DNA of 64,000 nt from a virus: IMG/VR virus record IMGVR_UViG_3300031539_000008, positions 1-64,000 of that record. One strand, given 5' to 3'. Positions 16,513 through 53,664 of this stretch are shown here, piece by piece. The translations under genes and the position numbers were made by a program. Each line of letters starts with the position of its first letter. Position 1 is the first letter of the stretch. Under the pieces are notes generated by a model. It did not search any database and was not told the origin of the DNA. It saw only the letters and a list, made by a program, of their open reading frames with translations.

Positions 16513-17357
16513 AACGGATTTGGCTAGGAAGTCGGCGCATACGGCTCCGTGACGCGCAGAACTACCCATCTCCGGTATGCGACCTGTGCGGCGCGGTCAC
16601 CGAGGGCCTCCCCGTCGAGGGCATCACCCTTGGATACCGTTCGGCCGCGTACGTGCTGGACGGACGCGCGTGGGTCTGCGCGAGCCCGGACTGCATGGAT
16701 GCGTGGAGCGACGCTCTGGAAGCTGACGACGCTGATAGGGCCGCCAGGCGAGGCGCCGTTGACAGCGCGCCGACTGAGACCGAGAGTGCGCCAATGACGG
16801 ACACGCGGATCAGCGACATCAAGCACGACCTTCTATCCTTTGCCGGGGCGGCCACGCGGCGGACCCTGGAGAACGTCTGGACGGAGGGAGGTAGCGTGTA
16901 CGGCGTCGCCAGGAGCGTGGTGACCCGTACGGCATGGGGCGCGGTATGCGGAGCGGCTGGAGCGGGCCTGGGCGCCATGACTGGGTTCCTGATCGGGCCA
17001 CCAGGGCCGCGGGGAGAGATGGACCCCAAGGAGCGTCTGGTCCGCCAGGTGAAGTACAGCCAGATGGTCCGTGACGCGGCACCGATGATCGTGAGCGCCC
17101 TCTCCACCATCGAGTACGAGGCCCGCAAGAAGCTGGAGGAGATGGGCCACTACCCCTGCGAGGAGTGTGGCATCCCTCACGTCAAGGCTCAGCGCCATCA
17201 GATGCCTCCCGGTACCTACTGGGACGTTGAGCGCAACTGCTACCTTCGGCCAGACAATGCAGACTGGAAGCAGGCTGCCTACGAGGCCGCCGCGGAGGAC
17301 GACAGGTGGGAGCTGGAGGACGACGAGGACGACGACTCAGAGGAGCAGGTCCACTAG
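16509..17357 (+). CDS. Hypothetical protein with CxxC motifs and Gly zipper
   Basis: CDLC, CEEC, GAVCGAAGAGLGAMTG. Confidence 0.55.
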   Translation: MKRIWLGSRRIRLRDAQNYPSPVCDLCGAVTEGLPVEGITLGYRSAAYVLDGRAWVCASPDCMDAWSDALEADDADRAARRGAVDSAPTETESAPMTDTRISDIKHDLLSFAGAATRRTLENVWTEGGSVYGVARSVVTRTAWGAVCGAAGAGLGAMTGFLIGPPGPRGEMDPKERLVRQVKYSQMVRDAAPMIVSALSTIEYEARKKLEEMGHYPCEECGIPHVKAQRHQMPPGTYWDVERNCYLRPDNADWKQAAYEAAAEDDRWELEDDEDDDSEEQVH

Positions 17358-19057
17358 GCTGCCATCCCGCCGATTTGCCACTCGACCCAGAACATCCACC
17401 GCGACGCGTTCGTAGTCAGCGCGTTCGCCTCTACGAGTATCTGTGATCCAGATGGGGTGAGGGTCACGAAGACAGTGGGCGGCCAGCTCCCCGTGCCCTG
17501 TACGTTGTTCACGTGGGCAGTCATGGCCGTGGTCGTGGCCAGATTCCTGATGAACACTTGCTCGATAAGGTGGCCAAGTTGGTCAGCCGGATTCGAGGTG
17601 TCCACGGCCGTGGCCCACACCTTGATCTTCACATTCTGACCGTCCACAGTCGGACCCTGGATGGCTACCGCTGTCGAGGCCCCCGTGCCTCCCGAGATCG
17701 CCAGGCCCTTCGTGACTATGCGGTGGTCGCTGCCTGCGAAGCTGCCCGACTGCGTGTCCGTGGAGACGTGCGCCGCGTCGGAGGTCCCCGCACTTTGAGC
17801 GATGAGCTTGACCTTCCCCGTGCCGCCCGAGGCAAATCCAGCTTCCACGGTGGCGTCTCCAGCAAGACCCGTGTTGCTGTTGTTGCCGCCTTTGAGACGC
17901 GCCGTACCGCCGCCACCAGTGGCGTTCGGGTTTGCCGACGTGCCGCAAGCAATATCGATGTCGCCCGTTCCGCTGCCCGCCGAGCTAGTAGTCGAGGTCC
18001 GGTTGCCCGTGACAATCGACACTTTCCCGGTGCGCTCGTTGGTATCGTTGCTGCCGGTGTTCCCAGAGCCGATTGTAACGTCGCCGGTGATCCCGTCTGC
18101 GGCTGTACCCGACCTGAGAAATACGTCCCCGCTGAATCCAGAGACCGTCGCGGCTCCCGAACCAAGGGTCAGGTCTCCCGAGCCGGTGATATTCGAGGTC
18201 GAGTTCGAGTCCCCTGTGAGGACTTGGATCTCGCCGGTCTGCCGGTTGGTACCGGACAGACTTGTGGTGGTCATGAAGATTCGGCCGGTGCGGCCGTTGG
18301 CCGTGCCGCCAGGCTGGCCACCCTGGATAACCAAATCACCCGACGTGCCGCTGCCGCGAGCGTTGCCACCCCGGAGCGTGCAAGACCCGCCTGCGTCGTT
18401 GCCAGAGCCGCTAACGCAGTCTCCGCCGCGGAAGGTCGTGTCTCCGCCCTTGCCCGTAGCCGTGTTGTCGCCGCCGTGGCAGGTCAGGACACCGCCACTG
18501 TTGGCTGCGATGCCTTCACCACCCGCGACCTCGCATTCGCCGCCGATGCCGCCTGTGCCGCCTCGGAACGTGCCCTTCCCGCCCGTGGCGCCGGTGGCGG
18601 CAAGGTTGTCTCCACCCGCCGCAGTGAGTGCGCCGCCGGCTGCACCGTTGCTGGTGCTGACGTTGTTACCGCCCTGGACGAGTAGGGCTCCACCCGCAAA
18701 GCTGCCGGTGCCTGCCGTGTGGTTGCCCGCTCGGATCGTGTAGCTGCCCGCGTTCGCTCCCCCAACGTCGCCACCGATGATGGCGCGGCCGTCATCGATG
18801 ATGGGGTCGTTGGCGCCGGAGTTCGGCCCGGTCGCCAACACAGTCGCCCAGTTCGGCGTCCCGATGAGTCCATCCACGTAGAACTTGGTGGTGAAGTCGT
18901 CGGGCGCCGAAGGTGTGGCACCCTGCATCCGCGCGAACGCAGCCCCCGCGTTGTCCACGACCTGGAGGAAGGCTCCCCCAGTGTCGCGGACGCGGTTCCC
19001 GCCCTTCCCGTACTCCACGGAAGGGCCGATTCCCGAGAGGGTATAGTCGAACGGCAT
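17354..19057 (-). CDS. Gly-rich fibre/spike protein
   Basis: Repetitive GG-x-hydrophobic-x-hydrophobic-x-GG strands; DDFTTKFYVD fibre motif; N-terminus paralogous to 19070-20185. Confidence 0.75.
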   Translation of the reverse strand: MPFDYTLSGIGPSVEYGKGGNRVRDTGGAFLQVVDNAGAAFARMQGATPSAPDDFTTKFYVDGLIGTPNWATVLATGPNSGANDPIIDDGRAIIGGDVGGANAGSYTIRAGNHTAGTGSFAGGALLVQGGNNVSTSNGAAGGALTAAGGDNLAATGATGGKGTFRGGTGGIGGECEVAGGEGIAANSGGVLTCHGGDNTATGKGGDTTFRGGDCVSGSGNDAGGSCTLRGGNARGSGTSGDLVIQGGQPGGTANGRTGRIFMTTTSLSGTNRQTGEIQVLTGDSNSTSNITGSGDLTLGSGAATVSGFSGDVFLRSGTAADGITGDVTIGSGNTGSNDTNERTGKVSIVTGNRTSTTSSAGSGTGDIDIACGTSANPNATGGGGTARLKGGNNSNTGLAGDATVEAGFASGGTGKVKLIAQSAGTSDAAHVSTDTQSGSFAGSDHRIVTKGLAISGGTGASTAVAIQGPTVDGQNVKIKVWATAVDTSNPADQLGHLIEQVFIRNLATTTAMTAHVNNVQGTGSWPPTVFVTLTPSGSQILVEANALTTNASRWMFWVEWQIGGMAA

Positions 19058-24382: not shown

Positions 24383-24528
24383 CCGTCACCATCACCGTGT
24401 AAGCACTTGATATTATTGAGGAAATCGGTAGAAATGCGTGCGTAAAGGCACGTTCAACGTCGCCGTTAGAGTCCGAATTCGTACGTCTAAGGTGGGTTGA
24501 CGGGCTCCCTCACCGGCTTACTCTTGGA

Positions 24529-24555
24529 TGTCCGATAAGTGCGAGTTGTCGGTCA
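24529..24555. promoter_or_regulatory. Putative recombinase core site (lox-like imperfect inverted repeat)
   Basis: TGTCCGATAA-GTGCGAG-TTGTCGGTCA, arms 8/10 complementary, 7-bp spacer, just upstream of the probable recombinase start. Confidence 0.45.
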
Positions 24556-24587
24556 TCGTGGGGCGCAAGCGAAACAACAACACGGCC

Positions 24588-25859
24588 ATGGAGCTGTTGC
24601 CGAATGCGGCTGCGGCACTGCGCACCGAGGCACTGAAACGTCACCTGGAGCGTGGCGATGATCTGGCCAGCTACGCGCGGTCGGATCGGACGCAACAAGC
24701 CTACGAGTCGGACGTGCGCCAATGGCTCGACTACGCGAAGCGCCATGGCATTCCGCCGTACCCGATCTCTCCTTCCGCCCTGGTGGCGTACCTCGGGTAC
24801 ATGGACGAGCGCGACTACAAGGTGGCGACCGTCAAGCGCCGCCTGGCCGGTCTGGTGCAGTGGCACCAGAGCCGTGGCGATGCGCTTCCGATGGGCCCTA
24901 AGCTAAAGGAGCGCCTCAAGGGGCTCCGGCGGAAAAAGGGGGTGGCCCAGACTGCGAAGCGGGCATTCACCCTGGAGCAGATTGCCGAGATGCTCTTGCT
25001 GATGGGGGATAGCGATGTGGAGTGCCGCGACAAGGCCATGCTGCTCGTGGGGTTTCAGAGTTCTGCGCGCCGAAGCGAGCTGGCCGAGCTGACCTGGGAA
25101 GACGTAGAGGAGCACCAGACCTTCTGGCTTCTTCACATCCGCAGGTCGAAGACCGACCAAGAGGGCCTGGGTCAGGATGTTGTCCTACCGCAGGAGGGCG
25201 GCTTCAGTGCGCTTGCCGCCCTGAGAGACTGGCGAGAGCGACAGGGAACCGGCACTGGACCAGTCTTCGGCATCACAGATCGGACGATAGCCAGGCGCGC
25301 GCAGCACTGCGCGAAGATGATAGGCCTAGACCCCGGCGTCTACGGGGCTCACTCCTTGCGCAGCGGTTTCGCCACCGAGGCCGACCGCAAGGGCGCATCT
25401 GTGAGGGAGATTCAGGGGCAGACGCACCATAAGGATGCAAGGATGGTCGACAGGTACATTCAGAAGCGTGCGCAGGCCGAAAACAAGGCCGCGCGTCTGG
25501 TAGCCGAAGGGCTGAGCGAATTGACGCCGAAGAAGCCGCGAGGGTACGAGGTTGACCTCGGCGACTATCGCGTCTTGCTCGTCGACTCAAGCTCAGGAGA
25601 GCCCGTCGCGTGGGGCTTCCCGCTGCTCAAGTCGCTCGGCGAGGAACGCTTCTCCGCCCTCGGTCAACTGGGCGAGTTGGCGTGCCTGGATCACGTCAAC
25701 GGCGGCAAGTACGGCTTCGTGGTGCGCCGGCTGAACCATGCCGAGGCGATTCGCAAATACGGAGAAGTCACCGGGCGGGAGACTGGTCCGCGCGGCGGCT
25801 GGCGCTCGATCACGTACGGAAAGACACAGTTCCTGAGCAAGCTGGACGGGGACCAATGA
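24588..25859 (+). CDS. Tyrosine recombinase, Cre-like, with C-terminal extension
   Basis: SAM-like N-domain (T..AYESD...W), RDKAMLL..F.S.ARRSEL, RSKTDQ.G, GAHSLRSGF, H...M..RY. Confidence 0.92.
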   Translation: MELLPNAAAALRTEALKRHLERGDDLASYARSDRTQQAYESDVRQWLDYAKRHGIPPYPISPSALVAYLGYMDERDYKVATVKRRLAGLVQWHQSRGDALPMGPKLKERLKGLRRKKGVAQTAKRAFTLEQIAEMLLLMGDSDVECRDKAMLLVGFQSSARRSELAELTWEDVEEHQTFWLLHIRRSKTDQEGLGQDVVLPQEGGFSALAALRDWRERQGTGTGPVFGITDRTIARRAQHCAKMIGLDPGVYGAHSLRSGFATEADRKGASVREIQGQTHHKDARMVDRYIQKRAQAENKAARLVAEGLSELTPKKPRGYEVDLGDYRVLLVDSSSGEPVAWGFPLLKSLGEERFSALGQLGELACLDHVNGGKYGFVVRRLNHAEAIRKYGEVTGRETGPRGGWRSITYGKTQFLSKLDGDQ

Positions 25860-39376: not shown

Positions 39377-39685
39377 ATGCGTGAGCTGCCCATCGGAGCG
39401 ACCGGGGGCGCCTGCTACCCCGCCGAGCGCTTTCAGATCCGAGAAGGCTGGCAACTGGAGGTGACTCCGCTCACCCTCGGCCGCGCGCGCATCATCCACA
39501 CGGACGGCGTGTCCGTGGACGACTTCTGGTGAATGCCATCCATGGAGGCCGCGGTCGTGGCCTTGGCGGAGTTCATGCTGAACGCTACGATGCTGGAACC
39601 CGAGGGCTGGAACCGATCCAGCTACGGCGCGTGGACACGCAGGCGCCCGAACCTGCTGCGTGAAGAGGAGTACGTCGCACCATGA
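39377..39685 (+). CDS. Candidate selenoprotein / UGA-readthrough gene (in-frame TGA 39530-39532)
   Basis: DDFW-UGA-MPS...EPEGW.R...RRRP reads as one protein; SECIS-like hairpin follows the UGA. Confidence 0.6.
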
Positions 39686-50066: not shown

Positions 50067-50402
50067 CTACCGAGCGAAGACCTCGGCGCGTGTGTGAAGT
50101 CGGCCTTCATCGAACTCGATGTGGTCGCGTTCAACCTGATCTACCAACTCGGCCGGGCAATACCTGCGGAACGGAAGCATCTCCCGTGCCGCGTGCTCTG
50201 CGACGAGGTCTGGCGGAAAGCCAAGGTTCCGCAGCATCCGATGCTCACGGCGCAACTTGTGTTGTTGAGCGTTGGGCAGATACGGAAACAGCGAATCCTC
50301 CTCAAATGCGAAGTGGCATTCCAAACAGCACGCCACATCCATGCGGCAACTATTCATCTTGTCTTTGCAGGCTCCGCAACATGGTGGCTTGACTGGCATC
50401 AC
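50067..50402 (-). CDS. Hemerythrin-like (HHE) small protein
   Basis: HFAFEEDSLFP, EH, HAARE, DH. Confidence 0.5.
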   Translation of the reverse strand: MMPVKPPCCGACKDKMNSCRMDVACCLECHFAFEEDSLFPYLPNAQQHKLRREHRMLRNLGFPPDLVAEHAAREMLPFRRYCPAELVDQVERDHIEFDEGRLHTRAEVFAR

Positions 50403-51127
50403 GTACCTCTCATGGCCTTCTCCAGGATACCCCTGGTTTTCTTGCTACTCGTGCGATTCTTCCTGGATTTCGTCCTCTTCTTCGTCGGGTTCGGGATGAG
50501 ACCCTCTGCCGCCAGTGAGGTAAAGTTACGTGGAGAGACCACCACGTGATCCAACACCGGGATTCCAGTCATCCTGCCGACCTTGACCATGCGTTGTGTC
50601 AGATCGATGTCAGCCTCGCTTGGCGAGGAGTCGCCAGTGGGATGGTTGTGTGCGATGACCACGCTGTGAGCCTGCCGACGGATCGCCTCCCGAAACAACT
50701 CTCTGGGGTGCACCTCCACCGCCGACAGGCTGCCAATGGCGATTCCGAGCACGTCGATCACTTGCTGGCGTGCGTCGAGCAACACGACGACGAAATACTC
50801 CTGCGGCTTCTTGCCGATGACCCTACGCACGAGTTCTGCTACCTCGGATGGCTGCCTGACAGTCCCCGCGCGGTCCTGACAGGCCGCGTCACACAAGCCA
50901 GCAACCGCAAATACAGCAATCACCTTCTTGGCCTGGGCAGTGGGAACCCCAAGATGGGTGAGCGCACTCATGCTCGCGTCGGAGAGTCCACGCCCGTCGG
51001 GGAAGTTCTCGGCCAGGATGGCTGCGCTTTTCTTGGTCAGCCCCAACTCACGCAGGCGGTCCACGAGCTTGCCTCGCTCCCGAATCTCCAGGAGTAGATC
51101 GTTGTGTATCGGTCGACCTCTCGGCAT
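50399..51127 (-). CDS. radC: RadC-like JAB-domain protein with C-terminal tag (ILEKAMRGT)
   Basis: QEYF...LD, VHPRELFREAI, AHNHPTGD..PS.AD, LDHVV. Confidence 0.9.
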   Translation of the reverse strand: MPRGRPIHNDLLLEIRERGKLVDRLRELGLTKKSAAILAENFPDGRGLSDASMSALTHLGVPTAQAKKVIAVFAVAGLCDAACQDRAGTVRQPSEVAELVRRVIGKKPQEYFVVVLLDARQQVIDVLGIAIGSLSAVEVHPRELFREAIRRQAHSVVIAHNHPTGDSSPSEADIDLTQRMVKVGRMTGIPVLDHVVVSPRNFTSLAAEGLIPNPTKKRTKSRKNRTSSKKTRGILEKAMRGT

Positions 51128-52331: not shown

Positions 52332-52891
52332 CAGTACACCAGTCCTCTCTCCGTCACGGTTAGCCGACCGCCGCTGATGGCGATGGCCTTGGGCGGGCTT
52401 CCAGGCGACATCGCGATGCGCACGTTCTTGCCCAGGGTGTGGATGTAGTCGTCCGTCATTCCGTCCGACTTCCATTTGGAGCTGCGGTACACGATGTGAA
52501 CCGCGCGACCGTACGGCTTGAGCTGGTAGTCTTGGAGCTTGAGTTCGCCCATCTGCACGGGGTCACGCGCCGCCCATCGACGAAATAGCTTGGCCGACTT
52601 CTCCGCGCCGGCCGCCTTGAACAGCTCCTGGTCCGGACCGAGATGGCCGACCCATCGCACGTGCTTCCCAGGGAAGATCAGCAACGTCTTCAGCGTCGGG
52701 CTCCAATAGAGGTTGGGGCCCTCCCCCGTGAACTTGTGGACCTCTTCCTGCCCGTCGCTGTCGCGCTCGACCTTGATCTCCAGGGCAGTGCCAAGCAGTG
52801 CCACGTCGCCTGGATTCGGCAGGCGTGACGGCTTAGGGCCGGGGTTCCCCGCAAGTAGCAGGCACGGTAGGCAGGGGTTTTGGCGTGGCAT
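52331..52891 (-). CDS. Hypothetical protein with N-terminal NP repeats
   Basis: QNP, GNP, PNP, then globular domain. Confidence 0.65.
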   Translation of the reverse strand: MPRQNPCLPCLLLAGNPGPKPSRLPNPGDVALLGTALEIKVERDSDGQEEVHKFTGEGPNLYWSPTLKTLLIFPGKHVRWVGHLGPDQELFKAAGAEKSAKLFRRWAARDPVQMGELKLQDYQLKPYGRAVHIVYRSSKWKSDGMTDDYIHTLGKNVRIAMSPGSPPKAIAISGGRLTVTERGLVY

Positions 52892-52900
52892 CTTCGTTTC

Positions 52901-53101
52901 TCAGCGTCGTCGGGATCCCTTTTTCGGCCGCGACCGCGGCCCACCGGAATACCGTCAGCCAATCCCCGGGCCGCATGACGCGTCCCCCACTCCCCTGAAG
53001 TCGTGGAAGGACTGTGGTGCGATTTGTGGTGCGATTTGTAGCGTGGAGACGGTCGCCGCGTTGGCGCGGTCCACATCGGCTTTGCTTGGTTGAGTAGCCA
53101 T
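52901..53101 (-). CDS. Candidate small selenoprotein (in-frame TGA 52957-52955)
   Basis: MATQPSK...RGVGDASCGPGIG-UGA-RYSGGPRSRPKKGSRRR; perfect GGCCGC-GGTC-GCGGCC hairpin downstream of the UGA. Confidence 0.55.
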
Positions 53102-53664
53102 CAGGGGCGGCTTGTATCCTCATATTGTACGGGGAGCTGCGGGTCGCCGGAGCCAGGACCTGGCCCGGTGTGCTTCGTGCACACCCAGATGCCTTTGACG
53201 TACGCGAACTGCTCGCAGTCACCTGCGTCTATAGGCGTTGATCTTCCGGCTGATAGGGAACGCGAACGAGAGCGCGAACGAGAGCGCCGACGCCCAACCC
53301 CGATCCTTGGGCCCGGTGCTGTTGGTCCATGGGGGAACAGGCATCCGGTAATCATGGACCCTTGGCACTCAGCCAAATCGTGAGCACTCAGCTTGCTCGC
53401 CATCCACTGTTTCTTACACCAGGCTAGACCACTGGAGATGCACTTGCCGCGGGGGCGGCTAGGCGTGGATCCTCCGCGTGAGCCCGCCCTCCCCTTGCCC
53501 CGAGCGCCGACTCCACGGTGCAGAGTCATCTTGACCGGTGCCCCCATGCCTCGCGGCACGATCGGGATGCGGACGTGTCCATCTTGGATGTGAGAACGAG
53601 CCGCGTCGGTGTCCCATGCTCCGAGGCCGACTTGACGCTGATACAGAGTGGGGTTGTTGGCCAT
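53101..53664 (-). CDS. Multi-GxG-motif Cys-rich basic protein
   Basis: GLGA, GMGA, GVGA, GVG; RS repeat. Confidence 0.6.
   Translation of the reverse strand: MANNPTLYQRQVGLGAWDTDAARSHIQDGHVRIPIVPRGMGAPVKMTLHRGVGARGKGRAGSRGGSTPSRPRGKCISSGLAWCKKQWMASKLSAHDLAECQGSMITGCLFPHGPTAPGPRIGVGRRRSRSRSRSRSLSAGRSTPIDAGDCEQFAYVKGIWVCTKHTGPGPGSGDPQLPVQYEDTSRP

Follow-up and report, generated by a model that had tools for sequence, protein, structure and literature searches.

The window analysed here is the 64,000-nt stretch that forms positions 1 to 64,000 of IMG/VR record IMGVR_UViG_3300031539_000008, a single 102.6-kb viral contig with 62% G+C that is 71% complete. On its minus strand, a small open reading frame (ORF) lies between a 187-aa ORF and a conserved gene encoding a 186-aa protein. 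The ATG of the small ORF at 53101 overlaps the TGA stop codon of the 187-aa ORF (53103-53101) within the sequence TGATG (53103-53099). Its 48 codons end with ...RGVGDASCGPGIG and run into an in-frame TGA (52957-52955), behind which the same frame continues to a second stop. A Cys is located six residues ahead of the UGA, corresponding to a C-x5-U spacing. The hairpin behind the UGA starts 13 nt past this codon and its loop 19 nt past it. The features are as follows.

53101-52958, minus strand: small ORF, part ahead of the UGA, 48 codons, MATQPSK...FRGVGDASCGPGIG
52957-52955, minus strand: in-frame UGA, proposed selenocysteine codon, in the context UGA-C
52954-52904, minus strand: extension behind the UGA, 17 codons, RYSGGPRSRPKKGSRRR
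52903-52901, minus strand: TGA, proposed true stop of the extended ORF; the next gene begins 9 nt later with its ATG at 52891
52941-52926, minus strand: SECIS-like hairpin GGCCGC-GGTC-GCGGCC with a 6-bp stem and a GGUC loop
52996-52904, minus strand: conserved C-terminal cassette RGVG-DASCGPGIG-U-RYSGGPRSRPKKGSRRR (alignment A4, 85% mean column identity), the U being the proposed selenocysteine
52891-52331, minus strand: conserved 186-aa gene, the downstream neighbour, with a codon signal of +0.54 per codon
39530-39564, plus strand: look-alike site 1, consisting of a TGA (39530-39532) and an 8-bp hairpin GAGGCCGC-GGTC-GTGGCCTT (39545-39564)

The original prediction had proposed the ORF start in the TGATG overlap, the in-frame UGA with its continuation, second stop and 9-nt gap to the next start, the perfect hairpin 13 nt behind the UGA, and a twin hairpin GGCCGCGGTCGTGGCC in an unrelated gene. 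All of these elements are present in the sequence, the twin at 39547-39562, 14 nt past the TGA at 39530-39532.

Codon usage of the small ORF ahead of the UGA is weakly positive (+0.10 per codon, compared with -0.24 and -0.20 in the other frames). The 17-codon tail has an atypical codon usage (-0.45 per codon vs a gene mean of +0.47), a score that is noisy, being drawn from 17 codons under RNA-structure constraint. By eye, 53118-53101 showed no slippery site at which a -1 frameshift could connect the small ORF with the 187-aa ORF. The small ORF also contains an exact 12-nt tandem duplication (acaaatcgcacc x2; 53016-53039, minus strand), which translates into QIAPQIAPQ.

Relatives of the block and constraint across the UGA

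Relatives were found using the downstream 186-aa gene as anchor, which yielded 19 homologues (alignment A1) and 20 loci (L001-L020). Five metagenome contigs (L002, L003, L004, L005 and L007), whose 186-aa gene proteins are 68-75% identical to that of the window, carry the same block upstream of this gene. The block in these relatives reads ...SCGPGIG-TGA-RYSGGPRSRSKKG...-stop, with the second stop 9-21 nt ahead of the next ATG, and follows the consensus G[VMI]G-[DS][AE]S-C-G-P-G-I-G-TGA-R-Y-[SA]-G-G-[PS]-R-S-R-[SP]-K-[KG]-G.... Conserved peptide flanks the UGA on both sides (...SCGPGIG and RYSGGPRSRSK..); conservation of the small ORF ahead of the UGA is limited to its last ~13 codons. The sequence TGACG is invariant among the window, these five relatives and L006.

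Behind the TGA, variable sites number 4, 1 and 9 at codon positions 1, 2 and 3 of the TGA frame (9/14 at the third). All third-position changes are synonymous (CGG/CGA/CGC, TCC/TCA, GGT/GGA, AAA/AAG, GGA/GGG/GGT/GGC). With four or five independent lineages, approximately, underlying the substitution statistics, the pooled pN/pS behind the TGA was 0.23 in the TGA frame, compared to 1.11 and 1.67 in the other frames. Ahead of the TGA it was 0.16 in frame, and the other frames gave 0.97 or had no synonymous changes. An alternative-frame ORF (MRPGDWLTVFRWAAVAAEKG...) was rejected, since its identity in the relatives is only 49-58% and its codon-position pattern is wrong. From the TGA to the second stop, the window, L002-L005 and L007 contain no ATG, GTG or TTG in frame, so the tail can be translated only by ribosomes passing the UGA. 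Three relatives have a second in-frame stop directly behind this one (TGA TAG in L004 and L005, TGA TGA in L007). The tail is conserved and the spacer past the second stop poorly so. Indels between the TGA and the next ATG are multiples of three; as this holds for the untranslated spacer as well, such regularity is no proof of coding here.

In all seven sequences (the window and L002-L007) the UGA shares its frame with the downstream 186-aa gene. The distances from the UGA to the next start are 63, 72, 78, 78, 78, 81 and 54 nt, and the spacer contains stops. In L016-L019, which are distant relatives, an upstream ORF continues in frame, after an NP motif, into the 186-aa domain. The shared frame and the fusion may be a relic of an ancestral polyprotein.

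The module terminates long ORFs in L002, L005 and L007 (246, 351 and 260 aa, respectively), whose bodies are mutually unrelated. Two database proteins end at the same site: P0021 (351 aa, the L005 protein) stops at ...SCGPGIG, exactly at the TGA, and P0020 (139 aa), which has yet another body differing from that of L007, also stops at ...SCGPGIG. At the start of the conserved block stands an R-x-G-[VMI]-G motif, which the L005 and L007 proteins repeat internally four or five times. Judged from this arrangement, the putative cassette is a movable 3' module, located on unrelated bodies in the relatives and always just ahead of the 186-aa gene.

Searches for further members were carried out at the protein and DNA level. 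A 33-column profile of the module had 0 matches among 1.84 billion representative proteins. A word-indexed search of a 5.8-billion protein set returned only two members, both ending ...GIG at the UGA, and no Cys form. DNA patterns of the module and of its Cys version each had 0 matches in IMG/VR. The looser pattern GGCTGACG-N10-14-CGCGGTCGCG had 51 matches in IMG/VR; these were chance-like, mostly with 3-4-bp stems, and came without ORF context or a similar peptide, and they were discarded. Close relatives were found neither in IMG/VR nor in phage GenBank records. None of 185,579 species genomes, searched with a protein profile and a DNA pattern, contained a relative, and they therefore gave no lead to the host. 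Neither tRNA-Sec nor a SelB-wing or SelA was found in the virus record, which is 71% complete.

Nearly all known selenoproteins have Cys-containing homologues. Such homologues, for which the original prediction had suggested a look at related viral contigs, were found neither among proteins nor in IMG/VR, in searches whose power is limited by the 33-40-residue query.

The hairpin and its copies

The hairpin of the window has a folding energy of -11.7 kcal/mol. Its GGUC loop and the closing CGC/GCG are invariant among the window and the relatives. The outer stem varies (GGCCGC, GGGCCGC, GGACCGC, GGATCGC, GGCGC), the 3' side changing to match, and three of the seven stem pairs show double changes. 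Overall, 96% of the alignment cells are paired vs 27-53% in slid controls, and the observed covariation score was reached by none of 500 shuffles. Synonymous sites are frozen or covarying in the hairpin core and vary freely outside it. Coding and RNA constraint thus act on the same bases, as predicted for a SECIS located within an ORF.

According to an extract of PMC13188914, the bSECIS model of Zhang and Gladyshev comprises a loop of 3-9 nt, a stem of 4-16 bp, a G in the first two loop positions, a UGA-to-loop distance of 16-37 nt and an MFE of at most -7.5. The window hairpin (GGUC, 6-7 bp, 19 nt, -11.7 kcal/mol) lies within the model as given there, whose own chance rate in this genome is 5-7%. 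In the E. coli SECIS, a 17-nt upper stem-loop begins 11 nt past the UGA and has a bulged U17 and an essential loop G23 and U24 (PMC8659212). The window loop reads G23 G24 U25 C26, which places GU at 24-25, the stem starts 12-13 nt past the UGA, and there is no bulged U. The hairpin is similar to the E. coli (fdhF-type) SECIS but does not have the E. coli-specific form. Rfam gave no match at gathering score over the window, and no SECIS family at E up to 10 on 52850-53050.

Two further relatives have a comparable hairpin behind a TGA. L001 reads ...PRGMGGTGIGG-TGA-CGC-CGC-TGA (U-RR-stop) and carries the hairpin GGGTGC-GGTC-GCACCC with the loop at +16; L006 reads ...SGIG-TGA-RRR-TAG and carries a stem-GGUC-stem hairpin with the loop at +18. 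Both lack the Cys at -6. With only two or three Arg codons behind the UGA, they are uninformative on translation beyond it. In these two loci, selenocysteine would occupy the third or fourth position counted from the C-terminal end, and the SECIS would lie behind the real stop. Across four contexts (L001, L006, the module and the site at 39530), the loop is found 16, 18, 19 and 20 nt after the TGA, whereas the distance from the hairpin to the next start varies from overlap (site 1) to ~50 nt. This argues that the hairpin belongs to the TGA and not to the following gene. An intrinsic terminator was ruled out, as an A-run and not a U-run lies behind the hairpin on the coding strand.

At site 1 the stem extends to 8 bp, 12-14 nt after the TGA (39530-39532), and the loop starts 20 nt past it. 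The ORF halves at this site (39377-39685, plus strand) have 51 and 50 codons in one frame and are split only by the TGA, followed at once by an ATG. Both score strongly as coding (+0.53 and +0.56 per codon). Site 1 represents either a pair of coupled genes or a single gene of 102 aa that contains a UGA; for the read-through protein, the search gave no homologues of 56-181 aa.

The original prediction held that two unrelated genes sharing this hairpin behind an in-frame UGA could hardly be due to chance, and proposed a scan of the whole contig. The 16-mer is over-represented: with up to two mismatches it had 5 matches, compared with 0.5 expected in shuffles (the palindrome being counted twice). 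However, the near-copy at 17525 (TGGCCGT-GGTC-GTGGCCA, 17524-17541, plus strand) has no TGA within 40 nt upstream; it sits where a plus-strand ORF starts (GTG 17513), and the long minus-strand ORF 17354-19057 spans it. A third GGUC hairpin behind a TGA (100377, loop at +25) was dropped, as it is without coding context. A hairpin of at least 6 bp fitting the bSECIS model follows ~7% of the TGA triplets overall and 4/77 confident ORFs with a TGA stop. TGA is also the commonest ordinary stop, ending 66/111 confident ORFs. Given the chance rate of 5-7%, the near-copy without TGA and the frequency of TGA stops, the argument from this single genome is only suggestive. Within the genome alone the probability of chance is moderately low; the comparative data lift the association well above chance.

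Probable decoding of the UGA and alternative explanations

The comparative data make it quite probable that UGA 52957-52955 is decoded, whatever the residue inserted. The reading we favour on balance is the one originally proposed, that selenocysteine is inserted at the UGA by host SelB, giving rise to a C-x5-U tail. It is supported by the kept UGA, the frame constraint on both sides, the covarying hairpin, which lies within all four constraints of the bacterial SECIS model, and the lack of in-frame starts after the UGA in the relatives. Selenocysteine is the most likely residue because the hairpin is SECIS-type, UGA-anchored and co-varying, and because a Cys is present at -6. According to this model, the hairpin with its GGUC loop (52941-52926) would be bound by SelB with Sec-tRNA(Sec) at the moment when the ribosome arrives at the UGA, 19 nt upstream. 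Having decoded the UGA, ribosomes would translate 17 further codons and terminate at 52903-52901. The predicted product is a 66-residue protein with the conserved tail RGVG-DASCGPGIG-U-RYSGGPRSRPKKGSRRR, and the cassette would consist, in this order, of a processing-like RG[VM]G motif, SCGPGIG, the UGA, the hairpin and a basic tail. The decoder would be the selenocysteine system of the host, the virus supplying the cis signals only (UGA and hairpin). Cys at -6 and selenocysteine may form a redox-active selenenylsulfide, or selenocysteine may serve as a cross-linking or metal-binding handle.

Alternatively, the UGA could be a genuine stop and the hairpin an intercistronic RNA element (e.g. a signal for processing or stability, a site bound by an RNA-binding protein of the virus or an element regulating the next gene); the stretch behind the TGA would then owe its conservation to a role as RNA or as the 186-aa gene's leader. 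All hairpin copies are indeed found at gene junctions, and it is always the same 186-aa gene that follows the conserved block. The frequent use of TGA as stop, the non-coding appearance of the tail in codon usage, the missing Cys homologue and the real stop two to three codons past the TGA in L001 and L006 also agree with a true stop, as does the fact that indels in multiples of three, which extend into the untranslated spacer, do not prove coding. An RNA leader, however, should not give third-position, synonymous-only variation, with a pN/pS of 0.23 in one frame across the TGA and at least 1.1 in the other two. Nor does it fit that the hairpin keeps its distance to the TGA (loop at 16-20 nt) and not to the next start (overlap to ~50 nt), that the tail is conserved and the spacer past the second stop poorly so, and that the U-run of an intrinsic terminator is missing. 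We therefore regard a true stop as rather unlikely.

The coding signature past the UGA requires read-through alone and not selenocysteine, and would equally arise if the UGA were decoded by a near-cognate tRNA (Trp, Cys or Arg) through leaky termination as in phage Qbeta. This would yield a minor extended form, and the hairpin would help by delaying the ribosome or release factor. The context conserved here, UGA-C, is one in which termination in E. coli is weak; likewise, no Cys/Sec pair was found. On the other hand, the hairpin has the size, G-rich loop and distance of a SelB-binding SECIS, is covarying, and stands at a fixed distance in four contexts, and a redox pair would be in keeping with the Cys located six residues ahead of the UGA (C-x5-U). 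Moreover, we know of no established bacterial mechanism in which a hairpin stimulates UGA read-through without SelB. Decoding without selenocysteine thus appears improbable, even more so than a true stop. A sense meaning of TGA throughout the virus or its host (genetic code 4 or 25), or a virus-encoded suppressor tRNA, would account for the in-frame TGA being tolerated at two sites. Yet TGA terminates 66 of the 111 confident ORFs, the TGA stop of the 186-aa gene coincides exactly with the end of all homologues (...ERGLVY), the 102.6-kb record is devoid of tRNAs according to ARAGORN, and the G+C content of 62% is unlike that of known TGA-recoded lineages. TGA being the commonest stop and tRNAs being absent, genome-wide reassignment or a viral suppressor tRNA is excluded for practical purposes.

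Selenocysteine insertion at the UGA would resemble that in bacterial genes with a SECIS inside the ORF, the prototype of which is E. coli fdhF. As in these genes, the in-frame UGA is conserved among orthologues and followed directly within the ORF by a stem-loop with a small, G-first apical loop (here GGUC, ~19 nt past the UGA), the same bases are under coding and RNA constraint, and a nearby Cys could pair with selenocysteine. In contrast, the module is encoded by a virus carrying no trans factors and is without known Cys-containing homologues. Its selenocysteine would lie in a short, glycine-rich, basic C-terminal tail on non-enzymatic, unrelated bodies and not in the active site of an oxidoreductase. 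The distance between UGA and loop exceeds that of fdhF by 1 nt, and the stem is perfect, without the bulged U17 required by E. coli SelB (PMC8659212).

In the SaoC family (Haft and Gwadz, bioRxiv 10.1101/2022.07.06.499078), selenocysteine is located at or near the C-terminus and the SECIS at or beyond the ORF end; a bacterial SECIS within the 3'-UTR has been engineered for TrxR (PMC10778597). The module would share with both a selenocysteine within a few to ~18 residues of the C-terminus, and it likewise has a perfect stem of 7 bp carrying a GG(U) loop a short distance past the UGA. As in SaoC, the SECIS of L001 and L006 would come after the real stop. Unlike the module, SaoC has Cys-containing members (invariant CC motif) that define the selenocysteine position, and is a protein of a cellular metabolic operon and not of a virus.

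The leaky UGA that ends the coat gene of phage Qbeta likewise represents a phage UGA that is decoded to give a C-terminally extended product, A1. There, the UGA is decoded only sometimes, and A1 is needed in small amounts. The Qbeta extension has ~200 residues, needs no downstream hairpin and arises from insertion of Trp by near-cognate decoding; that of the module, by contrast, comprises 17-19 residues and is linked to a conserved hairpin of the SECIS type. Examples of selenocysteine insertion are known in cells and in a few animal viruses. In the literature searched, we found no paper describing a selenoprotein encoded by a virus of bacteria.

The distinctive feature of the module family is the movable C-terminal UGA-SECIS cassette. 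If selenocysteine is indeed inserted, phages can exploit host SelB and tRNA(Sec) with merely a 16-20-nt hairpin, and selenocysteine is deliverable as a small movable tail instead of within an enzyme active site. Gene callers would systematically shorten such viral proteins, P0020 and P0021 ending at ...GIG. The virus group would also be tied to selenocysteine-using hosts, which would make the cassette a host-range marker, and a very compact natural SECIS cassette for near-C-terminal selenocysteine tagging would be at hand. A more speculative scenario, to which we give little credence as a whole, is that of a portable 'selenopeptide cassette' recombined onto the ends of unrelated virion or cargo proteins. 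Cleavage-like G[VM]G maturation would free or expose a ~30-residue Cys-x5-Sec peptide acting as redox catalyst or cross-linker for the many Cys-rich proteins of the virus in the reducing host cytoplasm. The SECIS would be reused at the unrelated gene at 39530, and host selenium metabolism be drawn on at several points.

Neighbouring genes

The 186-aa protein starts with NPC-x-PC-LLLAGNPG, and the C-x-P-C pair is present in most homologues. Its predicted fold is mostly beta (pLDDT 81). The model had no Foldseek match at E up to 0.001; with VIA-align the best Z was 4.3, to PilZ-like barrels (no clear PDB match).

Upstream, the 187-aa ORF (53664-53104, minus strand) has almost no codon-usage signal (+0.02 per codon), and the GC3 maximum shifts between frames along its length. 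In the stretch ~53375-53270 the GC3 peak lies in the frame of a 49-aa ORF (53219-53368); the stretch holds the direct repeat cgctctcgttcg x2, translated as RSRSRSRS in the 187-aa frame. Gene structure is uncertain around the 187-aa ORF (53104-53664, minus strand). L001 has a 187-like gene (MANRPSLYQRQ...) with a Cys-rich C-terminus, and L005 has two copies of a Cys-rich unit (MTPxxACxKCGG...). Module proteins and their neighbours (L005:2867-3919, L007:1748-2527, L001:2000-4000) start with M-A-x-R/N...R-x-G-[VLM]-G, and R-x-G-[VML]-G repeats every 60-90 residues in these proteins.

In the window, the same row of minus-strand genes includes one for a protein with a RadC-like JAB domain, at 50399-51127 (Pfam PF04002, E 5e-38). 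A tyrosine integrase is found at 24528-25859 (PHROG 1, E 1e-26).
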